A DNA stretch of 64,000 bases from positions 12,387 through 76,386 of IMG/VR virus record IMGVR_UViG_2861736478_000001. The stretch is one strand, 5' to 3'. The stretch comes from a virus. Its lineage: Duplodnaviria; Caudoviricetes. Shown here in pieces: positions 12,154 to 62,742 of this stretch; within the stretch, counting starts at the first letter, position 1, and every line of letters begins with the position of its first letter. A program made the translations under genes and the position numbers. The notes below the pieces were generated by a model, which was not told the origin of the DNA, did not search any database, and worked only from the letters and a program-made list of their open reading frames with translations.

Positions 12154-12603
12154 ATGATCAGACAGGTGTTCGTCGCGGACACGCCGTTCAGTCCCGAGCA
12201 GATCTACCACCAGGTCAGCCTGACGGAGCTCACCCTCGTTGTGGGCCAGCTCCGTGTCCCGGCCTCGGGAGGCGACTTGAGCGCCCTCGTCGACGCCGAG
12301 CGGATCGCCGACAAGCTGGGGCGCGTGGTTGCCGCCTACCACCGTGACCTGAAGATCCGGATCGGCCAGCTCCAGCGCGCGGACGAGCAGCGAGCGACCG
12401 CCCCCGCGCTGTGCGCCTGCGGCCAGCCGGCCGAGCCCGGCATCACGCACCAGACGGACGCGCCCTGCTACCGCGACGAGTCCCGCACCGCCGCCACACT
12501 CGAGCCGGAGAGCGCCCTGGGCGACATCGACCCGCACCTAGCCAAGGTGGTGGATCGCGTGTTCGCGACCCCCACCCACGAAGCCACTCAACCCGCAAGC
12601 TAA
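12154..12603 (+). CDS. Hypothetical protein (CACG..H..C motif)
   Basis: GGAG RBS and coding bias. Confidence 0.6.
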   Translation: MIRQVFVADTPFSPEQIYHQVSLTELTLVVGQLRVPASGGDLSALVDAERIADKLGRVVAAYHRDLKIRIGQLQRADEQRATAPALCACGQPAEPGITHQTDAPCYRDESRTAATLEPESALGDIDPHLAKVVDRVFATPTHEATQPAS

Positions 12604-46881: not shown

Positions 46882-47231
46882 GCCGTGCCGAGTTCAACGC
46901 GGACGTCACCCCCCTGGAGCTGACTACCAAGGTCAACCGGGCCGCCGCACGCGGCCTCCGTCTGGGCGCCGAGCACGTGCTCCAGGTGTCGCGGACGCAG
47001 GTCCCGATCGACGAGGCCACGCTGGAGAGGTCCGGCGCGGCCACCGTTGATGAGTCGCAGCTGACGGCCGCGGTCTCCTATGAGACGCCTTACGCGGTGG
47101 TCCAGCACGAGGACCTGGACCTCAAGCACGCATCAGGCCGCAAGGCCAAGTACCTGGAGGACCCTGCGCGGGACGAGGCCGACACGGTCCGGGCCCTGGT
47201 CGCGGCGCAGATCCGGCGGGCGCTGTCGTGA
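46878..47231 (+). CDS. Neck/tail-completion protein (HK97 gp10-like)
   Basis: VPIDEATLERSG...VSYETPYAVVQHE...KAKYLE. Confidence 0.8.
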   Translation: MSRAEFNADVTPLELTTKVNRAAARGLRLGAEHVLQVSRTQVPIDEATLERSGAATVDESQLTAAVSYETPYAVVQHEDLDLKHASGRKAKYLEDPARDEADTVRALVAAQIRRALS

Positions 47232-47674
47232 GTTTCACCCGAGACCTTCTCTCCGGGCTGGCCGTCCTGCTGGCCGACGCCGGAGCGGGCGACTGGAACC
47301 CGTCCGGCATCTACAGCGACGAGCAGACCGCCATCACCATCGGCGGACTGCCCGCCAGCCCGGACATGGCTATCACGCTCACCGTGTACGGCACAGGCCG
47401 CGCCGGCGACGACCTGACCCAGTCCGACACGAACACCCAGATCCAGGTCCGCATCCGCGGCAAGGCAGATCCCCGCGTGGTCGACGACCTGGCCGACCTC
47501 GTGTTCGACGCACTGCACGGGCTGTCCAACCACACCTTGGACACTGGCGTGCACGTCCTGCTCGCGCAACGCCGCATCGTCGCGCCGATCGACCGGGACG
47601 CCAACGGGCGCTGGGGCCGAGCGGACTCCTACGAGCTGCTCGTCGACCGCCCGTCACCCCACCGCACCGAGTAA
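47228..47674 (+). CDS. Tail terminator protein
   Basis: QVRIRG..DPR.VDDLAD..FDALHG...DANGRW. Confidence 0.75.
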   Translation: MSFTRDLLSGLAVLLADAGAGDWNPSGIYSDEQTAITIGGLPASPDMAITLTVYGTGRAGDDLTQSDTNTQIQVRIRGKADPRVVDDLADLVFDALHGLSNHTLDTGVHVLLAQRRIVAPIDRDANGRWGRADSYELLVDRPSPHRTE

Positions 47675-47737
47675 CCCACACGAAAACCGCAAGCGAAAAC
47701 GCATGCGGGATCTCCGCATGCCTGAAGGAGCAAGCAC

Positions 47738-48208
47738 ATGGCGCTTCGCAGCCTCCTCGCCAAGGACTGGACGCTGGAGGTCAACACGTCCAGCACCGCC
47801 GTACCGGCTTGGACCACGGTCAAGGGCCTGACCAAGCTCGAATTCACCCTCGACAGCGAGACCGAGGACGACAGCGACTTCGACAGCAACGGCTGGGCGT
47901 CCGAGGTCGTCACCCAGCGCAAGTGGGCGCTGGAGATCGAGGGGCGCCGCAAGCGCGACACCGGTTCGGCCTCCTTCGTGCCCGACCCCGGTCAGGAGTT
48001 CCTGCGCAAGGCCGGTCTCGTGGTCGGCATCAACGCCAACGTCGAAGTGCGTTGGTACCGCAAGGACGGCTCGCCGGACGCCTTCCAGGGCACTGCCGCC
48101 GTGCAGTACAAGGGGGCGGGCGGCGAGGTCACCGATCTGGAGCCGTTCGAGTGCGAGCTGACCGGCCAGGGCGAGCCCATCGAGATTGACAACCCGGCGG
48201 CGGCCTGA
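47738..48208 (+). CDS. Major tail tube protein
   Basis: LAKDW.LEV...DDSDFDS.GW...W.L..EG.R...DPGQE.LR. AAGGAG RBS. Confidence 0.85.
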   Translation: MALRSLLAKDWTLEVNTSSTAVPAWTTVKGLTKLEFTLDSETEDDSDFDSNGWASEVVTQRKWALEIEGRRKRDTGSASFVPDPGQEFLRKAGLVVGINANVEVRWYRKDGSPDAFQGTAAVQYKGAGGEVTDLEPFECELTGQGEPIEIDNPAAA

Positions 48209-48213
48209 CCCCG

Positions 48214-48606
48214 ATGGCGAAGTTCACAGACCTCAACGAGTTCTTCAACGACGGCCTGGCGCTCCCGGTTGGCGGCAAGGTCTACCACGTGCCGCCCGCC
48301 TCCGCCGAGGTCGGCCTGTTCTGCCAGAAGCTGATGGCGGCCGGGATCAGCGCCGCCAACGGTCAGGAGATCGACGCCGCCGACCTCGACGACGACGGAG
48401 AGAAGGACCTGTACAGGCGGGTCCTCGGCGACGTCTACGACGAGCTCATCGCCGATGGGGTGTCCTGGGCGAAGATCAAGCACTGCGGCGTCACGGCGTT
48501 CCTGTGGATCGCGACCGACGAGGACACCGCGGCCAAGCACTGGCGGGCCGACCCGGAAGCGGAGGCCCCGAAGGCGAAGGCTCGGGCGGGCCGGTCGACC
48601 CGCTGA
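48214..48606 (+). CDS. Tail assembly chaperone (G)
   Basis: L.LPVGGK.Y.VP..SA..GL...LY.RVLG..Y.EL..DGV.W, plus gene position. Confidence 0.8.
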   Translation: MAKFTDLNEFFNDGLALPVGGKVYHVPPASAEVGLFCQKLMAAGISAANGQEIDAADLDDDGEKDLYRRVLGDVYDELIADGVSWAKIKHCGVTAFLWIATDEDTAAKHWRADPEAEAPKAKARAGRSTR

Positions 48607-48863
48607 CGGGGCTGCGCGAATGGTATGACGCAGACGACGGCCTGGCCGTGGACGGCACCGCCGTCTCCTGGGCCGACCTGCTGCAACGCTGGGCTCTCGT
48701 CGAGGCCGACCTCCACTCCGAGTACGGCGTCGACGTCGACCAGCCCGGCCTTCTTCTCACCCGCACGTGGCGCTGGCTACGCGTGCGCATCCTGGGCCTG
48801 CTGTCCGCCGACACGCGGACCGCCCGCTCTCTCACCCCCGAAGACCGTCACCACCGGAGGTGA
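48597..48863 (+). CDS. Tail assembly chaperone downstream segment (T), -1 frame relative to G; start uncertain
   Basis: SWADLLQRW.LVEADLHSEYGVD...TWRWLRVRILGLLS.DTR. Confidence 0.65.
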   Translation, partial: DPLTGLREWYDADDGLAVDGTAVSWADLLQRWALVEADLHSEYGVDVDQPGLLLTRTWRWLRVRILGLLSADTRTARSLTPEDRHHRR

Positions 48864-48866
48864 GCT

Positions 48867-50828
48867 GTGGCGTTGAACGTGGGCGAGCTGTACGCGACGC
48901 TCGAACTGAAGGACCGCCTGACCGGTCCGCTGGGAAAGGCCACAGCAGGGATCAAGGTCAAGGCGACCGGCATCCACGCGGCGATGGTCATGGTCGGGAT
49001 GGCCGCCGCGCGGATGGCCGCCGCGGTCGCATCCGGCGCGTCGAGGGCCGGAGCCGCCTTCGTCTCGTCAGGCGCGAAGATGGCGGCGGCTGGCGCGAAG
49101 AGCGCCGGGCTGCTGGCGGGCGTCGGCGTGGCAGGCGTCGCTGTTGGTGGCGTTCTCGCTGGCGTTTTCGCTGGCATCACTGCCGGGATCGCGAAGATCG
49201 GCATCCAGGCGGCGATGTCCGCGCCCGCGGTGAAGGCCGCCTTCGCGGACCTGAAGACGTCCGTGCAGGCCGATCTGGCGGACGCGGCGTCGGTGTTCCA
49301 GGGGCCGCTGATCGCCGCTGCTGGCCAGCTCAAGGGCATGTTCTCCAGCCAGATCGCGCCAGCGCTGGGGGACATGTTCAAGACGCTCGCGCCCTTGATC
49401 GGCCAGTTCACGACCGGGCTGGGCGCCTTTCTCAAGCCCATGCTGCCCGCGATCCAGGGCGTGGTGGCAGCGGTCACGCCGATGCTGTCGGCCCTGGCCG
49501 GGTCCATGGGGATCTTCGGGTCGCAACTCGCTGGCTTTCTTGCTCCCATCTCGCAAGCGTTTTCGCAATCGAGTGGACTGCTGGCCACGCTGGTCACCGG
49601 TGTTGGTGGTCTGCTTCAGTCACTAGCGCCTTTGCTTGCGGCTCTTGTGGGGCTCGCTGCCCAGGTCGCAGGCCCGCTCATGAGCGGGCTGGCCACCGTC
49701 GGCCAGACCCTGTCCGCGCAGCTTGGGCCGGTCCTCATCCAGCTCGGCCCGCTGATCGGACAGCTGATCACGCAGTTCGCGCAGATCGCGGCAGCCGTGA
49801 TCCCGCTGCTGCCGCCCTTTCTACAGCTGGCGGCCACGCTGGCGTCGGCGCTGATGCCGGTTCTGACCCAGATCGTCGGGGCGCTCGCCTCGGCTCTTCA
49901 GCCGATCCTCGTGGCGCTCCAGCCCGTGCTGGCTGCTCTGGCAGAGGTCTTCGGGGCCGTCATCACGGCCCTGCTGCCGATCTTGCCGCCGATCTCTCAG
50001 CTGATCACCGCGCTTCTCCCGGTCGTGGTCACGCTGGTCAAGGCGCTCACACCGATTCTGACCATGCTCGCCACGGTGTTCTCCAAGATCGTTGGAGCGA
50101 TCACGCCGTTCATCGCACCACTGGTCCAGATCACGACCGCACTCCTACCGCCGCTGATCTCGCTGGTCCAGGCGGTCGTCAAGCTCTTTCAGGGAGACTT
50201 CAAGGGCGCGCTGAAGGTCGTTCAAGATGCCTTCTCGAACGCGGGCAAAGTCATCAAGGACGCCTTCCTCAAGATCATCGACATGGGGAAGAACCTGCTG
50301 AGCGGCCTGTGGGAGGGCATCAGCACCAAGGTCCAGTGGTTCCTGAACAAGATCGGCCAGTTCTTCGGCAACCTCCTGCCCGACTGGGTCAAGGACATCC
50401 TCGGCATCCACTCCCCGAGCCGCGTGTTCGCCGCCATCGGCTCGTTCACGATGCTTGGTTTCGCAGACGGGGTCACCGCCGAGCGGCCTGCCGTCCTTCG
50501 CGCCGCAGACCAGGCGACAAGGGGATTCGGAGCTGCCTTCCGCGCCGGGCTCAAACGCGAGGCCAGCGGCTTGGGCGACGCCATCAACGGCGCGACCCCG
50601 GGCAAGGTGGGCATCATCCCGCCCGGAGTGAAATCAGCGCTCCGCGCGGGGGGCCGCCGGGCAGGGAAGATCCCCGCAGAGGCAACGCGCCGCGCGGTCT
50701 CCCCGAGCGGGAGCACCGTCCCCGGGAGCGTGACGGTGAACGTCACCAACATCCACCCCCAGGCGGAACCCACCAGCCGCACAGTGAACCGAGGCTTGCA
50801 GTACGCCGCCACGCTCGGCCTCACCTGA
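48867..50828 (+). CDS. Tape measure protein 1
   Basis: MALNVGELYATL, amphipathic Ala/Leu/Pro repeats, LGIHSPSRVF, C-terminal PQAEPTSRTVNRGLQYA. Confidence 0.9.
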   Translation: MALNVGELYATLELKDRLTGPLGKATAGIKVKATGIHAAMVMVGMAAARMAAAVASGASRAGAAFVSSGAKMAAAGAKSAGLLAGVGVAGVAVGGVLAGVFAGITAGIAKIGIQAAMSAPAVKAAFADLKTSVQADLADAASVFQGPLIAAAGQLKGMFSSQIAPALGDMFKTLAPLIGQFTTGLGAFLKPMLPAIQGVVAAVTPMLSALAGSMGIFGSQLAGFLAPISQAFSQSSGLLATLVTGVGGLLQSLAPLLAALVGLAAQVAGPLMSGLATVGQTLSAQLGPVLIQLGPLIGQLITQFAQIAAAVIPLLPPFLQLAATLASALMPVLTQIVGALASALQPILVALQPVLAALAEVFGAVITALLPILPPISQLITALLPVVVTLVKALTPILTMLATVFSKIVGAITPFIAPLVQITTALLPPLISLVQAVVKLFQGDFKGALKVVQDAFSNAGKVIKDAFLKIIDMGKNLLSGLWEGISTKVQWFLNKIGQFFGNLLPDWVKDILGIHSPSRVFAAIGSFTMLGFADGVTAERPAVLRAADQATRGFGAAFRAGLKREASGLGDAINGATPGKVGIIPPGVKSALRAGGRRAGKIPAEATRRAVSPSGSTVPGSVTVNVTNIHPQAEPTSRTVNRGLQYAATLGLT

Positions 50829-50861
50829 TCCCACCACGCCAGCCCGGACGGGAGGTGCGAG

Positions 50862-52889
50862 ATGGCGATCAACGTCGGCGAGCTGTTCATCCTGCTCGAC
50901 CTGCGCGACACCATGTCCGCCAAGCTCCAGCGGGCGTTCGTCCGAAGCCGCACGTCGGCCACGGACTTCGGGACCCGCCTCAGCAGAGTGACCGGCGGCG
51001 CGGTCCAGTCGCTCACCTCCACCGCCGTGGCGGCCACCGCCACGGCGGTCAAGTTCGCTGTCCTGGCCGCCGCCGCGGCTTCGACCGCCGGCCACCTCCA
51101 GGCCCTCGGCGTCGCTCTGGCCCCGGCGGGCGGCATCATCGCCGCGCTCCCGGGGGTGGCCGCCCTTGGCGCCGCAGGGCTGGCCACGCTCGCACTGGCC
51201 TTCCGGGGTGTCGGTGACGCCGCGACCGCAGCTCTGGGCGACGACGCGGAGGCGTTCCAGGAGTCGCTCGCGGGCCTGTCGCGTGAAGCTCAGGGCGCAG
51301 CGCGGGAACTGCGGCAGCTCAAGCCCGTCGTCGACGGCCTGCGCCTTTCGGTGCAAGACGCCTTCTTCGCCCCGCTCGCGGGACAAATCGCAGCCGTTGC
51401 TGACGCACTTTCCGCAAGCGTTTCCGCTGGCATGTCAGCCGTTGCGGCGCAGTTCGGCCTCGCCGGTCTGGCGGTCGCGGACTTCCTTCGCACCGCGGAG
51501 ACCGCGTCTGCTGTGGAGGCCGTGTTCGGGTCGCTGGCCGATGCCATCGCCGCGCTCACCCCCGCGATCCAGCCCGTCGCCGCAGGTCTGCGAGACCTTG
51601 TCGTAGTCGGCGCGTCGTTCTCAGCCAGCCTCGCCCCCAGCATCGCGAGCGCCGCGGCCCGGCTCGGCACCTTCCTGAGCACGGCCGCCGCCTCCGGCCG
51701 TGCCCTGGAGTGGATGACCGGCGCAGTCGAGGTGTTCAAACAGCTCGGCGCTGCCGCCCGTGACGTAGGCGGCATCGTGACCGGCGTCCTCGGGGCGCTG
51801 CGCAGCGCCGGAACCAGCGCGCTCGGCGTGATCGGGCAGGTTCTCGACGGGGTCAACCGGTGGGTCAACTCGGCACAGGGCCAGCGGGTCCTCGTCGAAG
51901 TCTTCGCAGCGCTCGGCAGGGTCGGTGAGGCGTTCGTCCCGGTCGTACTCGCGATAGCCAGCGGCCTGGCCGAGCTGGCGCCCGTCGTCGCCGACCTGGC
52001 CGTACAGCTCGGGCCGGTGCTGACGGAAGCCATCTCCGCCGTCGCGCCCGCGCTCGCCGACCTCGGCCCAGGAGTGATCGCCGTCGTCGACGCGATCGGC
52101 CTAGCCGTGAGGGAGCTCGGCCCCGCACTTTCACCCATCGCAATCACGCTGGCGGAACTGCTTGCGGCTGTTGCCCCGCTGATCCCTGTGGTCGCCGACC
52201 TGGCGTCGATCATCGTGCGCAGCCTGGCGGCCGGCGTGCAGGACGTTCTGCCGGACCTGGCCCGGATGGCGTACGCCTTCACCGACGTGCTCTACGCGGC
52301 CCTGCCGCTGCTGCCGCCGCTGCTCCAGCTCGCCACCGACTTGCTGCCGGTCATCGCTGACCTTGTGACCGGCGTGGCCCGGCTGCTGTCGGGCGACTTC
52401 GCCGGAGCGCTCACCGCGGCGGGGTACGCGGCCATCGGCTTCGTGAACAGCATGGGCAACATCGGCTACCTGCTGCTGACCGGCCTGTGGGACGGCATCG
52501 TCTCGGCCGCCGCGTGGTTCAGGGACGCGATCTACAGCTTCTTCTCCAGCATCCTGCCTGACTGGGTGCGCGACGCTCTCGGTATCCGTTCCCCGAGCCG
52601 GGTGTTCGCCGAGATCGGCCGCAACACCATGCTCGGCATGGCGGATGGCATGACGAGCTCCACCAGGCAGGTCTTGGCTACGGCGGGGGACATCGCGGCC
52701 CGATTGGAGAAGTCGTTCGCCCCCAACCTAGCCGCGTCCATCGGGTCGACCGGGGTGGTCGCGACGGGCGCGAGCCGTGCGGCAGGGCCGGTCAACATCA
52801 CCGTCCACACCTACAACCCGCAAGCTGAACCAACTTCGTCCACGATCAACCGCGGACTGGCGTACGCGGGCATGCTGGGGGTGCTCTGA
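50862..52889 (+). CDS. Tape measure protein 2
   Basis: GGAGG RBS. MAINVGELFILL, same repeat type, LGIRSPSRVF, C-terminal PQAEPTSSTINRGLAYA. Confidence 0.9.
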   Translation: MAINVGELFILLDLRDTMSAKLQRAFVRSRTSATDFGTRLSRVTGGAVQSLTSTAVAATATAVKFAVLAAAAASTAGHLQALGVALAPAGGIIAALPGVAALGAAGLATLALAFRGVGDAATAALGDDAEAFQESLAGLSREAQGAARELRQLKPVVDGLRLSVQDAFFAPLAGQIAAVADALSASVSAGMSAVAAQFGLAGLAVADFLRTAETASAVEAVFGSLADAIAALTPAIQPVAAGLRDLVVVGASFSASLAPSIASAAARLGTFLSTAAASGRALEWMTGAVEVFKQLGAAARDVGGIVTGVLGALRSAGTSALGVIGQVLDGVNRWVNSAQGQRVLVEVFAALGRVGEAFVPVVLAIASGLAELAPVVADLAVQLGPVLTEAISAVAPALADLGPGVIAVVDAIGLAVRELGPALSPIAITLAELLAAVAPLIPVVADLASIIVRSLAAGVQDVLPDLARMAYAFTDVLYAALPLLPPLLQLATDLLPVIADLVTGVARLLSGDFAGALTAAGYAAIGFVNSMGNIGYLLLTGLWDGIVSAAAWFRDAIYSFFSSILPDWVRDALGIRSPSRVFAEIGRNTMLGMADGMTSSTRQVLATAGDIAARLEKSFAPNLAASIGSTGVVATGASRAAGPVNITVHTYNPQAEPTSSTINRGLAYAGMLGVL

Positions 52890-52891
52890 CC

Positions 52892-53761
52892 TTGCCGACT
52901 TACACACTCGACGGCGTGGCACTGGACCACCCGGCCGGCTGCTGGAGGCTGAAGAGCGGCACCCGCCGTCGTTCGTTTCCCGCAGCCCGGTCGGTGTCGG
53001 TCAAGATGCCCGGCCGGTCGGGGGAACTCCCCATAGTGGGCCTGGACCTGGAGACCACCTCGGTCGCGCTCGTCTTCGGGCTCACTGGCCGGACCCCGTC
53101 CGGCACGGACGGCGGGTTCGAACAACTGGAGTCGAATCTTGAAGCACTCGCCGCCTTGATTGGTGTCCGCCACCGGCTGATGACGCTCTCCTACACCGCG
53201 GGCTCGATCGTCCGCGTCGCGGAGGTTGCGCTCGATTCGGTGTCGGAGCCTGAGGTCGACGTCGGCTCGGCTCGTGGGCGGCTCACGGCGATCTTCAAGA
53301 TCCCCGGCGTCTTCTGGCGTGACCCGATCACGTCCACTTGGGCGGGGAGCGCGAACGCAGCTGAGCAGCCTGTCACTACCCTCGCCGGGTCCACCGGCCC
53401 GGTGGCAGACGCGCTCCTGCGCATCACCGGCCCGGCCGTCAACCCCGCGATCACCGACGTGGCCACGGGAGACACCATCACCAGGCCCTCCGGCCTGACC
53501 GCCGGACAGCGACTCCTCATCGACTGCGGGCAGATGAAAGCACGCCTGGTCACCACGGACACCTGGGACATGAGCGCGGGCTCGGACGTGACCGGCCAGA
53601 TCCAGGCCACAGGCCCAGGCTCGGCGTTCCACTGGCTCCACCTCACTCCTGCGGTGGGCGTCGGCGACCCCTTCTCGCGCGTCGTCCTGGTCACCAGCTC
53701 AGCGACGTCCACGACCGGCGCGTCCGGGTTGGAGGTTCGCGCCCGCCGCGCCTACCTGTGA
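52892..53761 (+). CDS. Distal tail protein (Dit)
   Basis: Follows the TMPs. YTLDGV.LD...PGRSG...FWRD...GSTGPVADA..RITGP..NP. Confidence 0.75.
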   Translation: MPTYTLDGVALDHPAGCWRLKSGTRRRSFPAARSVSVKMPGRSGELPIVGLDLETTSVALVFGLTGRTPSGTDGGFEQLESNLEALAALIGVRHRLMTLSYTAGSIVRVAEVALDSVSEPEVDVGSARGRLTAIFKIPGVFWRDPITSTWAGSANAAEQPVTTLAGSTGPVADALLRITGPAVNPAITDVATGDTITRPSGLTAGQRLLIDCGQMKARLVTTDTWDMSAGSDVTGQIQATGPGSAFHWLHLTPAVGVGDPFSRVVLVTSSATSTTGASGLEVRARRAYL

Positions 53762-53764
53762 GGG

Positions 53765-54652
53765 CTACTTCCAGGGGGCTGGCCAGTCGAGCCACTGTCC
53801 GAGGCCGGCATACGTCCCGATGGCTGTGGCGATGAAAGCGAGAGTCCAACCAACTATGGGCCAGAAACGCCCCCTCCTGGGTTCTGCGGGGGTGTTCACG
53901 CTATTCGAAATGCCGCCAGCGTCGTGTCCTGCGTAGTTGAAGATCGTATTCGGGCTGTTTTCGATGCGGATTTCTGGCACCGCAGTGGCGAGCGCCTGGT
54001 TGGTGACATCTGCGGACGGTGTCTCCTCACCTTCGGGCATGTTCGCGCGCATCTCGCTGACGAGCTCAGCCAGGGTGCTTCGGATACGGCTCACAACACC
54101 CTTGATCGTGACGGGCTGGAACTTAATGTAGATCTCGCCAACCCGCTGCATCTGGGGAATGTTCCCAGCCTTCCAGCCCGCTTCCGTGACAAGTCGCGCT
54201 ATGTCATCAAACGGTGGCCGCTTCACGGAGAGATCCTTACCCTGAGCGGCGAGGTCTTCTAGCTCGGATACCGATTCTGTAAGGTGGACCTCCTCCGTAA
54301 CGTACTCGCGAAGCTGTTCGGGAAACCACGATGGCGTTACCGGCTGGGGCATGGGGTTGTACCCGCCTCGATTAACGTGGACCACCCAGAGAGTGCCGAT
54401 GATCTTTCTGTAGACAGGAACGTCCTCCGTGGTGGTGTAGCCGTTCAGCTCGCGCTTCGCCCAGTCACGGAGCGGCCCGGAACGGGCATGCCCGCCCAAG
54501 GTCACACACTTTAGAAGAATGTTCGAAAGTGGCGTGCTGGGATCAATGATGTCCCGCTCGATCTGCGCGAGCAGAGAGTCGTCTCGGGATCGTCCCGCCG
54601 AGGGCTTCGTCACCGGCCTATTGTCTCGCGAATACCGGGGTATCTGACGCAC
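53765..54652 (-). CDS. AbiTii-domain protein with C-terminal TM helix (defence moron)
   Basis: D...PLSNILLKC..LG.....LRDWAKRELNGY...VPVYR, ending in a FWPIVGWTLAFIATAIG TM helix. Lower GC. The true start may be 54613. Confidence 0.75.
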   Translation of the reverse strand: MRQIPRYSRDNRPVTKPSAGRSRDDSLLAQIERDIIDPSTPLSNILLKCVTLGGHARSGPLRDWAKRELNGYTTTEDVPVYRKIIGTLWVVHVNRGGYNPMPQPVTPSWFPEQLREYVTEEVHLTESVSELEDLAAQGKDLSVKRPPFDDIARLVTEAGWKAGNIPQMQRVGEIYIKFQPVTIKGVVSRIRSTLAELVSEMRANMPEGEETPSADVTNQALATAVPEIRIENSPNTIFNYAGHDAGGISNSVNTPAEPRRGRFWPIVGWTLAFIATAIGTYAGLGQWLDWPAPWK

Positions 54653-54684
54653 CTTCGTCCTGCTGCGCGAAAGCCGAGACGGGG

Positions 54685-57423
54685 GTGCAGATGCTCCTCC
54701 GTCTCGCCATCTACGCCCCCAACGGAACCCGGAAGGGTGTCCTGCCGACCACGATCGGCACAGAGGTCGGGTGGCCGTTCAACGACGTGCCCGCCCTCAA
54801 GCTGACCCACAGCCAGGCCGGGCCAGGAAGCGACCTGCTCTCCGACCCTTGCGAGATCGCCGTCGAGGTCTCGGGAGACGGAACTAGCTGGGCTGAGCCT
54901 GCCGATTCTCGGTTCCTGCTGATTCGGCGGCATCTCGATCTCACCGACAAGGCGGCCGTCGAACAGCTCGACATGCCCGGCTACGCGTGGATGCTGCGCA
55001 AGCTAATCCTCTATCCCGGCAGTCAGCCGTTGGTCGACGGCAAGCGGGCGTTTCTGAGTGCGACGCCGGGCGCGATCCTCGCCACGTTCCTGACCGAAGG
55101 GCACGCGCGCGGCACGCTGACCGGCTTGACGTGGAACTTCAGCTCCACCCACGACTCTGCGGGACAGCCGTGGGCCAAGGTCTTGACGATCTACTACGAG
55201 CCGGGGCTGGACGCGCTCACCACGCTTATCAACCTCGCCGAGCAGGGCGTGCTCGACTTCTCCATGCAGGGCCGTCAGCTGCGCGCCTACAACGCCGACA
55301 CCCAGCTGGCGCGCGACCTCGCCACCGGGCCCGCCCCGATAGATCTGCGCCACGGCCGTGACATCACCCACGCGCCCGACGTCGGCACCCTGGAGGACGC
55401 CGCGTCCGCGGTCCTGGTCGTGGGCGATAACCAGTTCCAGCAGACCTACACCAACCCCTCTGCCGTAGCGCCATGGGGGCGGTGGGAGCAGTACGTCGGC
55501 CAGGGCGGCGTGTCCGATCCCGGTACGGCGGCGCTGCTCGCCGACGCGGCACTCAAGCGCGCCGAACGGGAACGGGTGCAACGGACCCGGCAGATCAGTC
55601 TGGCGGCGGCACGCTGGTTCCCGATCCTGGACTACCGGCCCGGTGACCGGGTTCTCGCGCCCGGCGCAGGAGGTCTGCCAGAGCCGCTGCGGGTCCGGCA
55701 GGTCACCCTGGTCCGGGACCAGACAGGGGTGCTCTCCGGCAACGTCGTCCTCAACGACCGGCTGCTCGAACAGGACATCCGCCTCGCCCGACGCACAGCG
55801 GGCATCGTCGGCGGTTCGACGGCGTCCGGCGGCTCCGGGGCGCGCCCTGCGCCCGCATCACCCCGGCCGCGTTCCCCCACCGCGCCTGCCGGGCTGATTG
55901 TGGACGCGCAGGCGTACATCGACTCGGCCGGCGTCCCCCAAGGCCAGATCACTGCCACCTGGGGCGCGGTAGTCACCGACGTCAACGGCACAGCCGTCGA
56001 GATCGACGGCTACGAGCTGTTCATGCGCGTCAACCAGGCGGACGCACCGTGGTTCCTCGTCGCGCTGACCCAGGCCGACGACAGGAACGCGACCTACAGC
56101 CCGCTCGTGATCGGCGAGCAGTACGCGTTCAAGGTCCGGGCCACCAACCAGGGTGCGCGGGGCGGATTCTCGGCACAGCAGGTGGTCACGGTCCCCGACG
56201 ACATCGATGCGCCACCCGTGCCGACGCCTCCTTCGCTCTCGACCCGTCTCGGCGTCATCCACGTCGGATGGGACGGGCACGGCGTCGGTGGCGTTCTCAT
56301 GCCGTCCGACTTCGCCCATCTCCTGGTGTGGATGCAGGACCCGCTCTCGCCCGGCTGGTCCGAGGTCGGATACCTGGAGCAGGCGGGCGGGATTGTCGTA
56401 CCCGGCCAGCCGTACGGCCAGGACCGCGAGTTCCGGCTGACCGCGGTGGACCGCTCGGGCAACGAGTCCGCGCCGTCCAGCTCGGCCACGATCGCAGCCG
56501 TCCAGCTGGTGTCCGGGGACGCCGCGGCGAGTTCGATCACGACTGGGCACCTGGTCGCCAACGCCGTCACGGCGGCGAAGATCGACGTCGGTGCGATCCA
56601 GGCGGCCCACATCGGAGCGAACCAGGTGACGGCGGCCAAGCTCGAATCGGTGCTGACGCTGTCCACCCGCATCGTCGCGGGCAGCGCGGCCGGGGCTCGG
56701 GTCGAGCTCAACAGCACGGGCCTGGCCGCCTACGACTCGGGCGGCGTCCAGACGGTCTCCATCTCCTCTGCGACCGGCAGCGTGTCGCTCGTGGGCCAGC
56801 TCGCCTCGGGCGTGACGGGGGCGCGCGTCGTCATCAATCCGTCCGGGGCGATGGTCCCGGAGCTGCGCTTTTACCCCGGCGCTGGAGCCAACTACTCGCG
56901 CATCTTCAGCGACGCCTCCCTGTTCCCTGGTGAAGCGACCCTGATCAGCTTGTCGGGTACCAACAGCGGCAATACCGCCGAAACCAGGGTTATGCACGCT
57001 GCGGGCGCCTACCACGTGAGGGTCCGAAACCCGGTGACCACGCTCGACAACGGCGGCTTCCTCGCGCTGGAGGAGTCGCAATCGCGGGTCGGCTTCAACC
57101 GGCATGCCACCACCCAACTTCAGCAGCTCACCTTCCTCCCGACCTCTACCCGGCATACCGGGGCCTGGTCCTACAGCGGCGGCGACGCCGGACTCGTGAT
57201 GAGCACCGTCACAATCCCCGCCAACCAGGCCGGGGCCACCTTCACCTACGGGCCGACCATGGCCAGCTCCCCGTATGTGGTGGCCACCATCGACGTCGGC
57301 GCAACCGGCAGTCCGCGCGTCGGCGCGTGCGTGTCGGCCAGGACCACGACGAGCGTCTTCGTGAGCCCCACCACGACGCAGGTGGTCGCCATCACCGCCC
57401 AGCTCTGGGGCTGGCGCATGTAA
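54685..57423 (+). CDS. Tail tip/hub-central fibre protein 1
   Basis: Hub-like N-terminus (WPFNDVP, AWMLRKL, PWGRWE), FN3-like domains, AITAAKI repeats, C-terminal beta domain. Confidence 0.8.
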   Translation: MQMLLRLAIYAPNGTRKGVLPTTIGTEVGWPFNDVPALKLTHSQAGPGSDLLSDPCEIAVEVSGDGTSWAEPADSRFLLIRRHLDLTDKAAVEQLDMPGYAWMLRKLILYPGSQPLVDGKRAFLSATPGAILATFLTEGHARGTLTGLTWNFSSTHDSAGQPWAKVLTIYYEPGLDALTTLINLAEQGVLDFSMQGRQLRAYNADTQLARDLATGPAPIDLRHGRDITHAPDVGTLEDAASAVLVVGDNQFQQTYTNPSAVAPWGRWEQYVGQGGVSDPGTAALLADAALKRAERERVQRTRQISLAAARWFPILDYRPGDRVLAPGAGGLPEPLRVRQVTLVRDQTGVLSGNVVLNDRLLEQDIRLARRTAGIVGGSTASGGSGARPAPASPRPRSPTAPAGLIVDAQAYIDSAGVPQGQITATWGAVVTDVNGTAVEIDGYELFMRVNQADAPWFLVALTQADDRNATYSPLVIGEQYAFKVRATNQGARGGFSAQQVVTVPDDIDAPPVPTPPSLSTRLGVIHVGWDGHGVGGVLMPSDFAHLLVWMQDPLSPGWSEVGYLEQAGGIVVPGQPYGQDREFRLTAVDRSGNESAPSSSATIAAVQLVSGDAAASSITTGHLVANAVTAAKIDVGAIQAAHIGANQVTAAKLESVLTLSTRIVAGSAAGARVELNSTGLAAYDSGGVQTVSISSATGSVSLVGQLASGVTGARVVINPSGAMVPELRFYPGAGANYSRIFSDASLFPGEATLISLSGTNSGNTAETRVMHAAGAYHVRVRNPVTTLDNGGFLALEESQSRVGFNRHATTQLQQLTFLPTSTRHTGAWSYSGGDAGLVMSTVTIPANQAGATFTYGPTMASSPYVVATIDVGATGSPRVGACVSARTTTSVFVSPTTTQVVAITAQLWGWRM

Positions 57424-57438
57424 CCCAAGGAGTACTGA

Positions 57439-57588
57439 GTGCAGGACCTGAACGTCGAGGCAGAGGCGGTCATCGCTGCCCTCCGCCGCCGCGTCGACGA
57501 GCTGAGCTACGAGAACGTCCTCCTGTCGCTCGCGGTGGACCAGCTGCAACAGCAGCTCGGCGCACCGATCCGGAAGAACGCAGGCTGA
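57439..57588 (+). CDS. 49-aa coiled-coil protein between the two tail-tip genes
   Basis: AAGGAG RBS. VQDLNVEAEAVIAALRRRVDELSYENVLLSLAVDQLQQQL. Confidence 0.65.
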   Translation: MQDLNVEAEAVIAALRRRVDELSYENVLLSLAVDQLQQQLGAPIRKNAG

Positions 57589-57594
57589 GCCGCC

Positions 57595-60369
57595 ATGCAA
57601 GTGATCATCCCTGGGGAGCGGCCCCGGTTCGGAGTCCGGCTTGTCGCCCATGCTCCCAACGGGCCCCGGCTCGGACTCCTTGGAGCGCCCCTGAGCTGGG
57701 ACGCCGGGCTTCCGCTGAACGATGTGCCAAGCCTGGAGCTGACCTACACCGCCCACGCTCAAGGCGCGGCCTGGCTGCGAGAGCCGTGCGAAGTTGCGCT
57801 GGAGTACAGCGTGGACGGCGGCGCGTGGAGCGAGGCCGCCAACGGCAGGTTCCTGAGGATCAAAAGGTCAGGAGATGCGACCGACCAGACCGGCGCACAG
57901 CGATTCTCGCTGCCCGGATGGGCGTGGATGCTGCGCAAGCTCGTCCTCTACCCGTCACTCGACATGGTCGACGGCAAGCGCCAGTTCAACGCCGTCCGCG
58001 TCGGCCGCATCCTCACCACGCTGATCGCCGAGGGGTCCGGCCGCGGAACCCTTCCCGGCCTGGTCGTGGACTTCACAGCCACGCACGACTCTGCCGGCCA
58101 GCCGTGGTCGGCAGAGCTGACGATCGGCCTGGAGCCCGGAACCGACCTCCTCCAGCTCCTCATCAACCTGTCTGAGCAGGGCGTATGCGACTGGCAGATG
58201 ACCGGTCGCGTTCTGCAGGTCTACAACGAGGGCACCGCGTTGGGTCGCCAACTGGCCGCCGGACCGGCGCCGGTCGAGCTGATCCTGGGCCGCGACATCG
58301 ACCAGGCCCCTGACGACGCGACGCTCGAAGACGCCGCATCGGCGATCCTCGTCGTTGGCGAGGAAGGGCTACGAGTCGAGGTCACCAACCCGGCCGCTGT
58401 CGCGCCGTGGGGCCGGTGGGAGGCATTCCAGCAGCAGGGCGGCGTCAAGGACGAGGGCACCGCCCGGCTGCTTGCTGGTCAGGCGTTGGAGCGCGCGAGC
58501 CGGGAGCGGGTGCAGTTCACCCGCCAGATCAAGCCGCAGCAGGCACGATTCCTGCCGCTGGTCGACTATCGGCCGGGCGACACCATCCGGGCGCCGGGGG
58601 AGGAGGGCAAGCCCGAGCCGCTGCGGATCCGGCAGATCACGCTGTCGCGCGGTGACGACGGCGTCGTGGGCGGCAACCTCACGCTGAACGACAGGTTCTT
58701 GGAGAGGGAGATCAAGCTCGCCCGCCAGGCCGCCGGCATTCTCAACGGCGGCGTCTCCGGCGGGGGCAACGGCGGGGATCCCGGAGGGGACAACGAGAAC
58801 CGCGTCCCAGCAGCCCCGACCGGTCTCCTCGTGAACCCGGCCGCCTACCTGGATGACGAGGGATACGCCCACGGGCAGATCACCGTCTCGTGGGTCGGCG
58901 TGACCAGCGACGTCAACGGCACGCCGCTCACGGTCGACGGCTACGAGCTGGTCGGGCAGACCCCGCCGGGCACGGGCGCGATGCGCGTCCTGGCCACGAC
59001 CACCGGCACAAGCGTCAGCTACTCGCCGCTGGAGCCCAAGACTCGCTGGCAGTTCGGGGTCCGTGCCACCAACCAGGGCACGCGAGGCGTGGTCGCGGGC
59101 ACGGCGGTGATCACCATCCCGGACGACGAGACGCCGCCGCCGGGCCCGTCCGCGCCGGTCGTCGACAGCCGAATCGGGATCTTCCGGATCACGTGGGACG
59201 GGTTCACCAGCGCGGGCACTGGCATGCCCACGGACTTCGCCCGCGTTTTGATCATGATGCGGGATCCGCTGGACCTCAGCGATGAGGGCCAGCAGGTCGA
59301 GTGGCTCGAACGCGCGGGCACCGCCGTGGTGCCCGGCCAGCCGTACAGCGTTGACCGGGAATTCTGGCTGGTCGCGATCGACAGGTCCGGCAATCTCAGC
59401 GGCGCATCAGCTCACGTCATGTCGCAAGCGAAACCGCTTGTGAATTCGGACATGATCGGCGAGATCATCAACGGAGCCGAGCACATCATCACCGGCTCCA
59501 TCCCGGCCAACGCGAAGATAGTCGCTGGATCAATTACTGGCGGCCTCATCCAGGCGCTCGCCATCGACGCGGGGAAGATCGCCGCGAACGCCATCAGCGC
59601 CGACAAGATCGTGGCGGGTGCGATCGACGCGGCGCATATCAAAGCCAACGCGGTCACTGCGGACAAGATCGCGGCAGGGTCCATCACCGCTGCGAAGATC
59701 GACGCCGACGCGCTCAACGGCAAGGTCATTACCGGCCCCGTCATCCGGAGCTCGGCCACCGGGCGCAGGTTCGTTCTCGACAGCAGCACGCTCGACCTGC
59801 GGTTCTACCCGTCCGGATCGTCGAACTACTCCCGCGTCTACGCGGAAGACTCGGGCGGCGAAGCCGCAGTGGCTATCACCACGAACACGTCGTTCTCGCA
59901 GCGGGCCGAGCTGCGAGTGAACTCGAGCCTGATCAGGCTCGGCATGATCAGTAGCGGTGGCGGACAGTCCGGCGGCGGCTTGGACATCGCCTCCAGCTAC
60001 GCCCGATACGGCTACAGCGCCGGTAGCTCCTCCACCGAGGCGTCGATCCTGTTCGACGGCGCTGGCAAATGGACCATGAAGGGCAGGGTCTGGGAGTTCA
60101 CCACCTCCAGCGCCTACGAAACGATCTGCGCCGGATCAGGCGTCGTTTCCTCCGGCTACGTCGGCGTCACGATCACGTACGGACCGTATATGGCCGGCAA
60201 CATGGGGCCCGTCGCGGTGGTGCGCGATGGCGCGACCACTCCGAACTTTTATTGGTGCTTGGACGCCTCCAGCCCTTCCGGGTTCTCGATCGGCTGGTCC
60301 TCTGGCGGCGGAGTCTATTCGGGCAAAGCCTTCTACTTCTGGTCCTTCCGCCACCCGGGCTCAGCGTGA
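57595..60369 (+). CDS. Tail tip/hub-central fibre protein 2 (full-length paralog of protein 1)
   Basis: LPLNDVP, AWMLRKL, PWGRWE, FN3-like domains, AISADKI repeats, LRFYP..SNYSR. Confidence 0.8.
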   Translation: MQVIIPGERPRFGVRLVAHAPNGPRLGLLGAPLSWDAGLPLNDVPSLELTYTAHAQGAAWLREPCEVALEYSVDGGAWSEAANGRFLRIKRSGDATDQTGAQRFSLPGWAWMLRKLVLYPSLDMVDGKRQFNAVRVGRILTTLIAEGSGRGTLPGLVVDFTATHDSAGQPWSAELTIGLEPGTDLLQLLINLSEQGVCDWQMTGRVLQVYNEGTALGRQLAAGPAPVELILGRDIDQAPDDATLEDAASAILVVGEEGLRVEVTNPAAVAPWGRWEAFQQQGGVKDEGTARLLAGQALERASRERVQFTRQIKPQQARFLPLVDYRPGDTIRAPGEEGKPEPLRIRQITLSRGDDGVVGGNLTLNDRFLEREIKLARQAAGILNGGVSGGGNGGDPGGDNENRVPAAPTGLLVNPAAYLDDEGYAHGQITVSWVGVTSDVNGTPLTVDGYELVGQTPPGTGAMRVLATTTGTSVSYSPLEPKTRWQFGVRATNQGTRGVVAGTAVITIPDDETPPPGPSAPVVDSRIGIFRITWDGFTSAGTGMPTDFARVLIMMRDPLDLSDEGQQVEWLERAGTAVVPGQPYSVDREFWLVAIDRSGNLSGASAHVMSQAKPLVNSDMIGEIINGAEHIITGSIPANAKIVAGSITGGLIQALAIDAGKIAANAISADKIVAGAIDAAHIKANAVTADKIAAGSITAAKIDADALNGKVITGPVIRSSATGRRFVLDSSTLDLRFYPSGSSNYSRVYAEDSGGEAAVAITTNTSFSQRAELRVNSSLIRLGMISSGGGQSGGGLDIASSYARYGYSAGSSSTEASILFDGAGKWTMKGRVWEFTTSSAYETICAGSGVVSSGYVGVTITYGPYMAGNMGPVAVVRDGATTPNFYWCLDASSPSGFSIGWSSGGGVYSGKAFYFWSFRHPGSA

Positions 60370-60402
60370 GCCGCGGGTCGGCGATTCCTGCGTGCAAGGA
60401 GC

Positions 60403-61089
60403 GTGAACGCATTGACGGTTGAGATGTGGAAGGTGTGGGATTCCGAGCTCGGCTACACCCCCACCGACTTCATGGAGGGCGAACAGAACGCGGCAGTTGC
60501 ACCACCCCGTGATGGCGCCGACCCGCTGTGGGGTGTGAGCCGCGTCGATGAGCAAGGGCACGCCCACATCCATATCTTCCCGCACACCGCGCTGGAGTGG
60601 CGGGCTGCGGAGTACGGCATTGACCACGACGACGTGGAAACGCTCCTGGACGTGATCTTGCACGAGCCGTGGATCCCAGCACTGGATGATCCACTGGCGT
60701 TCACCGATCCGCGGGCCGCGAAGATCTTGGCCGACATCCACGGACTGCCCACCGTCTGGACTCCAGGTGTCAGCGACGAGGTGCGCAGGCAGGCGCACCT
60801 GGAACGCATCAACGCGGTGAAAACCCACCGCGCCAGATTGGACGCAGAGACGAAGCAGGTCCGGCAGGGTGTGGTCGACTACCTGGGCATCAGCGTGACC
60901 TTGCCGGACGATCCGCTCGCAGCGGTTCGTGCAGCCCGCCTGGACCCCATCCGCGTCCAGGCACGGCAGCTCGCGGTGGCCCGCAACCGTGACCGCGGTC
61001 AAGGGTTCACACCTGTCACGATCACGTCGAAGCCAGCCATGACCTTCGCGGGCCGTAAGCCATGGTCGGGCGTGGAGGTGAGCGGGTGA
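60403..61089 (+). CDS. Hypothetical protein after the tail tip (possible tail chaperone)
   Basis: AAGGAG RBS. HIFP...LEWRAAEYGID..DV.TLLDVILHE motif. Confidence 0.65.
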   Translation: MNALTVEMWKVWDSELGYTPTDFMEGEQNAAVAPPRDGADPLWGVSRVDEQGHAHIHIFPHTALEWRAAEYGIDHDDVETLLDVILHEPWIPALDDPLAFTDPRAAKILADIHGLPTVWTPGVSDEVRRQAHLERINAVKTHRARLDAETKQVRQGVVDYLGISVTLPDDPLAAVRAARLDPIRVQARQLAVARNRDRGQGFTPVTITSKPAMTFAGRKPWSGVEVSG

Positions 61090-61478
61090 CGGGCATCCTC
61101 TGGCTGGACCTCTTCGTCACCGTCACGATCGTCGGCGGTGCCCTCGGACTCCTCGCGCGAGCAGTGACCGGCCTGGCTCGCCGACTGCGTCGTCTGTCGC
61201 ACTTCTTGGATGATTGGAACGGTGAGGAAGCGCGGCCCGGCGTGCCGTTCAGGCCGGGTTTCGCCGAACGGGTGGCGCTGATCGAGGCGGAGCTCAAGCC
61301 CAATCACGGCTCCTCACTGCGTGATGCGATCAACAGGGTCGAGCAGGGAGTGCGCCGAGTCGAGGACGGACTGGCTTCCCACCTTCAGCAGCACCGCGAG
61401 GCACTGCTACCGGTCGAGCGCCTACGCGGGGGAGCCGGAGCGGGCGAGACGGCGGAAGGTACGCCTCCTCCCGAATGA
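61086..61478 (+). CDS. Lysis-region membrane protein (TM plus coiled coil)
   Basis: N-terminal TM, FLDDW.GE.ARPG, PNHGSSLRDAINRVE. Confidence 0.7.
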   Translation: MTGILWLDLFVTVTIVGGALGLLARAVTGLARRLRRLSHFLDDWNGEEARPGVPFRPGFAERVALIEAELKPNHGSSLRDAINRVEQGVRRVEDGLASHLQQHREALLPVERLRGGAGAGETAEGTPPPE

Positions 61479-61604
61479 CGATCTTTCCGACAGACGGCGG
61501 CGTTCTCGTTGTGCCCGCTGTCCTCCCTATTCATGTACCGACCTCGGCGTTCGGGCTCACCGTCGCCGAGTGGCTTCTCCTCGACCCCGTACAGGAGGTG
61601 AGCA

Positions 61605-61775
61605 ATGTCTGAACCGACCGAGGAACAGCTCGTGGCCGCGGGCGTGGACCTGAGGCCATGGGGCCCGACAGAGCCTGACGAAGAGCAGGTGCTGCGCGGC
61701 CTGGGCTACGTCCTCAACCCGCTGACCGGCACCTACGAAGGCGACCCCCACGACGAGGACGGAGCACCCGAATGA
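61605..61775 (+). CDS. 56-aa acidic protein coupled to endolysin
   Basis: AGGAGG RBS. MSEPTEEQL...EPDEEQVLRGLGY. ATGA overlap with the endolysin. Confidence 0.6.
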   Translation: MSEPTEEQLVAAGVDLRPWGPTEPDEEQVLRGLGYVLNPLTGTYEGDPHDEDGAPE

Positions 61776-62539
61776 GCGTCAACGCCATGTTGGCCGCCGC
61801 CCGCGCGACCCTCGGTACGCAGGGCCGGCCGAACGGCATCACCCGCGCGTACGCTACCCGGCACGGCGCTGCCTTCCTCACCGCGCCCTGGTGCAACATG
61901 AGCGTGACCGAGTGGGCGCGACGCTCCAGCAACGCCCCGGCGGTGCTGCCCCGCGGTGACCGGGCCTACACGGTCTGGCACGCGCAAGACGGCAAGGAAC
62001 TGCGCCGGTGGTTTGCGGGCACGGCCGACAACCTCCGCAAGCACGCCCGGCCAGGCGCGATCGTGTTCTTCGACTGGTCCGGCACCAACACCATCGGCGC
62101 CATCGACCACGTCGGAATCGTCGAGCGAAACCTGGGCGACGGCAGAATCCAGACCATCGAAGGAAACACTGGCGACGCCTGCCGCCGTCGTGTCCGATCC
62201 GCAAGCGTTATCGCTGGCTTCTGGTGCCCGCCGTACGAGGAGCCCACCAAACCCTCCCAGCCCAAGCCGAAGCCCGAACGCGACTGGATGGAGGAGATCG
62301 TGAAGAAGCTGCCCGCCCTCTACTACGACGGCGACAAGCCGCTCACCGGCTGGCACGTCAAGACCCTGACCTGCCTGCTGGAGGCCCGCGGCTACCCCGT
62401 ACCGACGACGGTGGATGGCACCGTCTTCACCCGACACCACGACAAGCAGCTACGCGAGTTCCAGAAGGCCGCCGGTCTCAGTGGCGAGGCCGGCCGGACC
62501 GGCACCCGCACGTGGGCAGCGCTGCTCAAGGTCGCCTGA
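61772..62539 (+). CDS. Endolysin, CHAP domain plus peptidoglycan-binding domain
   Basis: PWCNM, PGAIVFFDW, IDHVGIVE, TIEGNT. C-terminal LREFQKAAGL..G.RTWAALL. Confidence 0.9.
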   Translation: MSVNAMLAAARATLGTQGRPNGITRAYATRHGAAFLTAPWCNMSVTEWARRSSNAPAVLPRGDRAYTVWHAQDGKELRRWFAGTADNLRKHARPGAIVFFDWSGTNTIGAIDHVGIVERNLGDGRIQTIEGNTGDACRRRVRSASVIAGFWCPPYEEPTKPSQPKPKPERDWMEEIVKKLPALYYDGDKPLTGWHVKTLTCLLEARGYPVPTTVDGTVFTRHHDKQLREFQKAAGLSGEAGRTGTRTWAALLKVA

Positions 62540-62742
62540 CATAGACCAGAACGGCAACGCCGCCCAAGCCCCCCCAGCCCAAGCCCTGGACGGACGACTG
62601 GACCAGCCCCGAAGACGCCCTCGGCGACGAGCCGACCGAGCAGCGCGTGCCAGGCCTGATCGATGAGGCGAACTAGGCACCGCTCTGCCCGCCCGCTCTA
62701 CCGCCCCGCAGGTCGCGGGGCTTCGCATTTCTAGGAGTGATC

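Follow-up and report, generated by a model that had tools for sequence, protein, structure and literature searches.

A stably kept pair of baseplate-hub/central-fibre paralogs in the tail module of a Streptosporangiaceae prophage lineage

In a stretch of 64,000 nucleotides of tailed-virus DNA (Duplodnaviria; Caudoviricetes), which corresponds to positions 12,387 to 76,386 of the IMG/VR record IMGVR_UViG_2861736478_000001 and is called the window below, the tail module carries two neighbouring paralogous genes, tip1 and tip2, each of them encoding a full-length baseplate-hub/central-fibre protein of the hub/Tal kind. These are the only two hub/Tal copies in the genome, while the usual state is one such gene per phage genome. 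The comparison with related loci indicates that tip1 entered between the gene of the distal tail protein (Dit) and that of Tal once, in a phage lineage of the Streptosporangiaceae, and has been kept together with tip2 since then, and that the double hub does not depend on the number of the genes for the tape-measure protein (TMP). These statements on the identity and evolution of the pair are made with high confidence. The fuller explanation, according to which both paralogs would also be built into one and the same tail tip instead of into alternative virions, is the best that can be offered from the sequences and, taken as a whole, falls somewhat short of an even bet.

The window consists of high-GC DNA (65-69%) and is part of contig 10 in a genome of 11.5 Mb. 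The host is a Nonomuraea-like actinobacterium and the element is a prophage of a temperate siphovirus, the nearest relatives of the prophage region, ~90% identical to it, being found in Nonomuraea longicatena and Nonomuraea sp. NPDC050556.

Paralogy and predicted fold of tip1 and tip2

By BLASTP, tip1 and tip2 give one colinear alignment of 901 columns (43% identity, 58% positives, E = 0), along which the identity declines from 55% in the hub (first 375 aa) through 45% in the fibronectin type III (FN3) part (next ~210 aa) and 31% in the shaft to 30% over residues 701-800 and 21% over the last 112 aa. A first-pass annotation of this DNA, made from the letters alone, had described the two proteins as colinear homologs that differ most towards their ends, and both points are borne out: the motifs cited there (NDVP, AWMLRKL, DGKR.F, THDSAGQPW, PWGRWE, R(V/I)RQ.TL, the A.KI-type repeats and LRFYP..NYSR) all lie within the alignment, and the divergence is greatest at the C-terminal end. 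The two genes, their parts and the small genes that accompany them are as follows.

54685..57423, + strand: tip1, the upstream baseplate-hub/central-fibre paralog, 912 aa (AlphaFold2 model, Foldseek, hub tree)
54685-55809: hub of tip1, aa 1-375
55786-55860: Gly-rich linker of tip1, aa 368-392; tip2 has a matching part
55867-56499: two FN3-like domains of tip1, aa ~395-605
tip1 aa 606-700: repeat shaft
56785-57420: variable C-terminal beta domain of tip1, aa 701-912
57439..57588, + strand: p49, 49 aa, a 49-codon open reading frame (ORF) with an AAGGAG ribosome-binding site, read from the sequence
57595..60369, + strand: tip2, the downstream baseplate-hub/central-fibre paralog, 924 aa (BLASTP to tip1, hub tree)
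57595-57621: N-terminal extension of tip2, aa 1-9
to 58743: hub of tip2, to aa 383
60403..61089, + strand: p228, putative partner gene of the tip2 C-terminal domain (AlphaFold2 model, co-variation with the end of tip2)

The AlphaFold2 model of tip1, computed with 22 homologs as input, has a mean predicted local distance difference test (pLDDT) score of 75.6 and begins with a mixed alpha/beta domain (aa 1-372), continuing through a glycine-rich linker that is disordered (aa 368-392) into two beta-sandwich domains predicted with confidence (aa 400-605, pLDDT 83-94), a repeat segment that is poorly modelled (aa 609-661) and a beta-rich C-terminal region (aa 663-912). The Foldseek search of the PDB matched this model to lambda gpJ (8k35_A, E 5.8e-15), the T1 tip protein (9l9p_S), T5 pb3 (7zhj_b) and a baseplate chain of Douge (8zdo_s), and, with target TM-scores of 0.50-0.55, to such stand-alone hubs as Mu gp44 (1wru, 0.55), Listeria gp18 (3gs9, 0.50) and the Neisseria protein 3d37 (0.55); VgrG and contractile-injection hubs were also matched, and so was 9j1k_L (0.53). 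The middle part of the model matched many FN3 tandems, including those of titin and contactin, and the homologs are annotated in their source as 'fibronectin type III domain-containing', with PF00041 precomputed on some of them. In tip2, PHROG tail and tail-fibre matches were obtained for aa 461-745. According to the model, tip1 and tip2 are baseplate-hub/Tal proteins in which a predicted gp27/Mu gp44-like hub is followed by two FN3 domains, a shaft of repeats and a C-terminal domain that varies; the gp27/Mu gp44 fold at the N-terminus and the gene position after TMP and Dit, by which the hub/Tal kind is recognized, are both present. The same hub fold is assumed for tip2 because of its 55% identity to tip1 over the hub domain. 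Directly after the hub, the glycines G377, G382, G383 and G385 (numbering of the alignment A1) are invariant in every family member, and no lysin domain was recognized in the tips by Pfam.

Related loci, gene layouts and origin of the pair

About 180 homologs were obtained in the protein search, almost all from the Streptosporangiaceae, and many of them are paired, three locus tags apart on one contig. From the species-representative genomes, 65 loci were then collected, with the ORFs classed by BLASTP to the tail genes of the window, and the following layouts were distinguished.

Layout A: two TMP genes, Dit, two full-length tips; 15 loci including the window
Layout B: one TMP gene (product of ~790 aa), Dit, two full-length tips; 13 loci
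Layout C: one TMP gene, Dit, a clean hub-only paralog of 381-385 aa, a full-length tip; 10 loci
Layout D: one TMP gene, Dit, one tip, the start of which overlaps the Dit stop or directly adjoins it; ~20 loci from Pseudonocardiaceae, Nocardiopsis and some Streptosporangiaceae

The double hub is present in 42 related loci, and Dit orthologs, 44-72% identical, stand directly upstream of the hub gene or genes in 60 loci. The more distant relatives in IMG/VR (<45% identity) are all with one hub. In isolated phages, tip1 was matched by tblastn at best with 36% identity over 67% of the query. The record MT836445.1, considered as an isolated phage with two copies, was rejected, being one gene with split alignments.

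In the tree of 107 hub domains, every upstream paralog, whether full-length or hub-only, belongs to one clade (44 rows, support 99), and every downstream paralog belongs, together with all single hubs, to another (63 rows, support 99). The sub-clades of the upstream and downstream hubs largely match each other, which argues for a long co-inheritance of both. In the Dit tree, the double-hub loci make up one clade (42 rows, support 99), within which the loci of the hub-only layout C group together (support 100) as the sister of layout B. Taken together, the hub and Dit trees identify tip2 as the counterpart of the ordinary single Tal and tip1 as the extra paralog. In the maximum-likelihood tree rooted with the distant single hubs, the upstream-paralog clade is placed outside the clade of downstream and single hubs; a joint clade of upstream and downstream hubs is not rejected by the approximately unbiased test (p 0.13), so tip1 may have come from a tandem duplication or from another phage.

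In two loci one of the copies is damaged: at L059:6592-9350 two overlapping ORFs of 516 and 478 aa make up the upstream paralog, and at L067:11165-13962 the downstream gene is broken, either of which may be an occasional decay of one copy or an assembly error. Several relatives (L011, L035, L030 and P0003/P0053) are situated on contigs of ~85-108 kb, with the element of the window being inside a contig of >280 kb, and two are labelled as plasmids by their source, namely a 94-kb plasmid of Microtetraspora malaysiensis and the plasmid unnamed2 of Nonomuraea sp. LPB2021202275-12-8. In NZ_BMQD01000023.1 (95.7 kb), the loci L011 and L035 are the two ends of the same contig, with tip1 at one and tip2 at the other, as if the molecule were circular. 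The relatives may represent a family of phage-plasmids.

Selection on both hubs, hub-only paralogs and the N-terminal extension

When tip1 and tip2 are compared with those of the ~90% identical relatives, the ratio of non-synonymous to synonymous substitution rates (dN/dS) is 0.07-0.30 in every region (0.07-0.15 for tip1 and 0.07-0.30 for tip2), and for the hub domains family-wide it is 0.35-0.41. The hub-only upstream paralogs of 381-385 aa, which stand directly before a full-length tip2 in ten loci, have the same constraint as the full-length hubs (dN/dS 0.365). The purifying selection in more than 30 diverged loci, as well as among the close relatives, indicates that both genes are functional. 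Two small genes that accompany the tips, p49 and p160 (described below), were lost together with the fibre part of the upstream paralog, not with its hub.

The downstream hubs are also distinguished by an N-terminal extension of 9-10 residues with the pattern QVIxPG, which is present in ~39/42 of them (37 with the strict pattern and two close variants), in 0/42 upstream hubs and in 0/22 true single hubs, these being motif counts with shared descent not factored in. The extension, a change in the ancestral Tal, appears only where an upstream hub exists, which is what contact between the two hubs would lead one to expect.

Variable C-termini and the small partner genes

Variability is highest in the C-terminal 100-200 aa in both hub clades, and the tip2 orthologs have mosaic patterns, with wholly different C-termini (980-1090 aa) in several loci. 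The similarity of p228 follows that of the last ~105 aa of tip2 with a Spearman coefficient of 0.92, versus 0.54 for the hub (shared descent not factored in), and in the loci with a replaced tip2 C-terminus p228 is absent. In most relatives, tip1 is also followed by a small gene of ~157 aa, p160 (for example, L026:12815-13300), which is a shortened p228 paralog, so that the doubled unit is a tip plus its partner. The gene p160 was lost in the window and in its two closest relatives, L003 and L021. The members of the p228/p160 family are always directly downstream of a tip and are exchanged with the last ~100 aa of this tip, a pattern that shows the distal domain of each tip and its small putative partner behaving as an exchangeable host-range cassette. 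The earlier view of the distal end as the likely receptor-binding part also agrees with this, the end being hypervariable among orthologs and co-varying with the partner gene.

For p228, AlphaFold2 gives a confident globular alpha/beta model (pLDDT 86, predicted TM-score 0.79), with no Pfam, PHROG or Atlas match, a best structural Z of 2.4 and no Foldseek match in BFVD below E 0.01. Judging from the co-variation, p228 may be a chaperone or a distal adhesin. Homologs of p49, 37-90% identical, were found between two full-length tips in about 29 loci, which are nearly all such loci, and none in the hub-only or single-hub loci; p49 is therefore tied to the fibre part of tip1, not to its hub, as it is absent where the upstream paralog is hub-only. 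In the window, the 172-bp gap between tip1 and tip2 is occupied by p49, which by eye looks helical.

Tape-measure genes and the remainder of the tail module

The gene order in the window is that of the major tail protein (MTP), the tail assembly chaperone (TAC), TMP1, TMP2, Dit, AbiTii (on the opposite strand), tip1, p49, tip2, p228 and holin. The genes other than those given above are the following.

47738..48208, + strand: major tail (tube) protein, single copy (phrog_3884, E 1.9e-48)
48214..48606, + strand: tail assembly chaperone (phrog_3860, E 5.9e-32)
48867..50828, + strand: TMP1, 653 aa (TMP PHROGs, e.g. phrog_58 at 1.7e-35; C-terminal block PQAEPTS..NRGLQYA..GL)
50862..52889, + strand: TMP2, 675 aa (phrog_305 at 1.7e-50)
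52892..53761, + strand: distal tail protein (Dit), single copy (phrog_33 at 6.6e-06, a weak match)
53765..54652, - strand: AbiTii-family gene, not part of the tail (PF18864 at 1.8e-29, over the cut-off)
61062..61478, + strand: holin-like gene closing the tail module (phrog_9869 and phrog_15431, holin)
61772-62539: endolysin with CHAP and PG_binding_1, after the holin-like gene

As the tail module after the tips has just p228, the holin-like gene and the CHAP endolysin, the tips are the sole receptor-binding candidates. In the scan of 52800-61500 no promoter-like site was found, and the terminator-like sites were near the chance level.

The first-pass annotation had counted two TMP genes against one Dit and one tail tube gene, had seen neither an invertase cassette nor a reverse transcriptase, and had proposed that TMP1/TMP2 and tip1/tip2 are cognate pairs giving two virion types. 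Its inventory stands: the paralogy of TMP1 and TMP2 is genuine (31% identity, E 2e-46), with TMP PHROGs matched by both, and the major tail protein and Dit are each found in a single copy, as is the chaperone. In 47000-62600 the inverted repeats are limited to imperfect ones of 20-30 nt, none being longer, the direct repeats between the tips (70-86%) are those of paralogy alone, and no PF00078 match was obtained in the whole genome, with the search controls being positive. The features of host-range switching by a Mu G-type inversion or by a diversity-generating retroelement are thus absent.

The pairing itself is not supported by the survey. In the double-hub clade, two TMP genes were counted in 15 loci and one in 23, the number being uncountable in 4; hence, of the 38 double-hub loci in which TMPs could be counted, 23 have a single TMP, 21 of these making up a well-supported clade, from which it follows that two hubs work with one TMP. 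A single TMP being common in double-tip genomes had been named beforehand as a finding that would refute the idea, and this is the state observed. One origin on the Dit tree suffices to explain the double hub, while at least 3 changes are required for the TMP number. For the TMPs, a tree built from the C-terminal 260 aa is mosaic, with long branches and no clean orthology of the first and second copies, and does not mirror the hub tree; TMP2 groups there with most single TMPs of the relatives. A C-terminal block of ~25 aa, PQAEPTS..NRGLQYA..LG, is kept in all first, second and single TMPs, and, by likeness to the mycobacteriophage Douge, in which the last ~40 TMP residues are inside the hub (PMC13033339), it may be the part lying in the hub lumen.

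What speaks for two different tails built from cognate pairs is that TMPs and tips are both doubled in the window, that all two-TMP loci are also two-tip loci, and that both gains can be placed, in one parsimonious reading of the Dit tree, on a single stem branch. A small position-specific signature is also found in the last ~8 TMP residues, the first copies ending in ..AAxxGL. and the second and single ones in ..AGxxGV., and the TMPs of a pair, nearly equal in length in the window, are very unequal in some relatives (1147 and 761 aa in L007, 2390-8229; 928/760 and 851/735 aa in L008 and L031). However, the frequent single TMP, the mosaic TMP tree and the C-terminal block otherwise shared by all copies make the cognate pairs barely credible, and the independent contrasts between the TMP and hub numbers are too few (only 2-3 usable pairs) for any statistical link. 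The double TMP is a separate feature, not needed for the double tip. In the literature searched, no genuine case of two tape-measure genes or of two hub/Tal proteins was found, which is weak evidence because the full-text collection was limited; the matches to 'two tape measure' refer to two chaperone products, not to two TMP genes.

The AbiTii-family gene separates Dit from tip1 in the window, and its homologs are at the same junction in L011, L018 and L041, with 0.6-2.8 kb of other DNA lying there in most relatives; accessory genes seem to be inserted preferentially at this junction. Upstream of the tail module, at 40473-43001, the window encodes an 842-aa head protein with a Phage_min_cap2 domain (E 3.4e-47), the C-terminal part of which matches an ADP-ribosyltransferase exoenzyme-type domain (PF03496, E 3.1e-10).

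Proposed arrangement of the two hubs in the virion

The conserved hub-only upstream paralogs and the downstream-specific QVIxPG extension favour the reading in which both paralogs are parts of the same tail tip. An extra ring or adaptor adjoining Dit would then be formed by the upstream hub, docking of the downstream hub would take place via its lineage-specific N-terminal extension, and one particle would carry two different receptor-binding fibres. In the most specific form, a tip of two complete gp27-like hub trimers, with the order of the Dit hexamer, the upstream hub and the QVIxPG-docked downstream hub, would bear two independent receptor-binding central fibres with their own tip-plus-partner cassettes, the upstream hub being a bare adaptor ring in a sub-lineage; this architecture is offered tentatively, as possible rather than probable. 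A precedent for stacking is the hub of lambda, which consists of two stacked trimeric proteins, the baseplate hub protein (BHP) and the hub protein with the central fibre (BHP-CFP) (PMC13033339).

Several points weigh against a shared tip. The solved siphophage tips, as described in PMC13252515, have one homotrimeric hub with a tube:Dit:hub ratio of 6:6:3, and no description of a tail with two complete gp27-like hubs was found in the literature searched. The geometry is a difficulty as well, since the trimeric fibre of the upper hub would somehow have to pass the lower hub. The shaft is 65-68% conserved within each paralog clade and 31% between the clades, and such paralog-specific shafts are consistent with two separate homotrimers and equally with alternative tips. 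Once truncated, the hub-only genes might have taken on a different role. Moreover, the loci of the relatives are prophage or plasmid predictions, none of them from isolated phages.

The same shafts would keep the trimers pure if each tail initiator took either a tip1 or a tip2 homotrimer under one Dit ring, so that two particle types of different receptor specificity arise with no TMP pairing. In each of the two proteins the hub is complete, with the same fold and 55% identity between them, both distal domains vary like receptor binders, with tip2 having its own partner gene, and the canonical tip, according to PMC13252515, has space for one hub trimer only; a mixed virion population from one genome is also known from the Tal of TP901-1/Tuc2009 (PMC11409707). 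However, the hub-only upstream paralog, which is under purifying selection in ten relatives, would as an alternative tip produce fibre-less tails, since no other receptor-binding gene is present between Dit and holin, and no reason is offered for an extension that is present only where an upstream hub exists; alternative tips are therefore considered rather unlikely. Mixing of the tip1 and tip2 subunits in one hub ring, for example 2:1, would be helped by the 55% identity of the hubs, with many invariant positions, and by the presumed production of both from the same late operon, but the repeat shaft, which looks trimeric by its lambda J and T5-type matches, is only 31% identical between the paralogs, and one or two full-length chains beside a hub-only partner could not form a trimeric fibre, so this mixing is highly improbable. 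It is likewise improbable that one copy is not a working part of the virion, being a recombination spare under loss or co-opted, for example, for the exclusion of related phages. The split upstream paralog of L059, the broken downstream gene of L067 and the loss of p160 in the window, L003 and L021 would agree with such a fate, whereas the intact, selectively constrained state of both genes, seen in over 30 diverged loci as well as in close relatives, and the long co-inheritance evident from the matching sub-clades speak against it. Placing both paralogs in one tip is the reading preferred here, tentatively.

Significance of the double tip

The core of the siphophage tail tip is usually taken as one Dit hexamer and one hub trimer, and more than 40 Streptosporangiaceae prophages or phage-plasmids keep two hub-fibre genes, or a bare hub and a complete one, under selection. 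Either their tip architecture would be unlike every solved one, or one genome would give rise to two kinds of particles, and both outcomes bear on how phages may widen their host range without DNA rearrangement. In addition, p228/p160 are defined here as a putative partner-protein family without known fold that travels with the receptor-binding end, and the double-tip trait is set apart from the double tape-measure trait.

Comparison with known systems

Lambda gpJ, the T1 tip protein, T5 pb3 and the Douge BHP gp18 are the best structural matches of the tips and share with them the gp27/Mu gp44-like N-terminal hub, the FN3 domain or domains and the central fibre, as well as the position of the gene right after TMP and Dit. 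Those phages, however, have a single such gene and their tails a single trimer, whereas here two paralogs, or a hub-only and a complete one, are found across the lineage. To our knowledge, gpL and gpJ of lambda are not paralogs each with a complete gp27-like fold, in contrast to the proteins described here, each of which has a whole hub domain. Lambda nevertheless resembles layout C in that gpL (BHP) provides a hub layer by the Dit-like ring and gpJ (BHP-CFP) a second, fibre-bearing hub (PMC13033339).

Two virion forms from one genome with no DNA rearrangement are produced in TP901-1/Tuc2009 by the cleavage of Tal at a glycine-rich motif (PMC11409707), and the invariant Gly-rich stretch that follows the hub in both tips is reminiscent of this motif. 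In TP901-1/Tuc2009 there is one gene, the proteolysis removes a lysin domain and the receptor binders are separate baseplate proteins, whereas here there are two genes. With this precedent, 'two virion types' are not new in principle, while a two-gene route to them would be.

The cassettes of a fibre and its cognate downstream chaperone or adhesin are exemplified by T4 gp37-gp38, Mu S-U and lambda stf-tfa. The exchange of a small downstream gene with the distal domain of the fibre, which characterizes them, is also found in p228 and is duplicated here (p160 and p228), but neither p228 nor p160 could be assigned to a Pfam or PHROG family or to a known fold, and their role as partners is putative. 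The fibres of Mu are switched by inversion, which is absent here. The hub/Tal-central-fibre kind of protein is already known, and what is unusual in the Streptosporangiaceae lineage is the stable presence of two.

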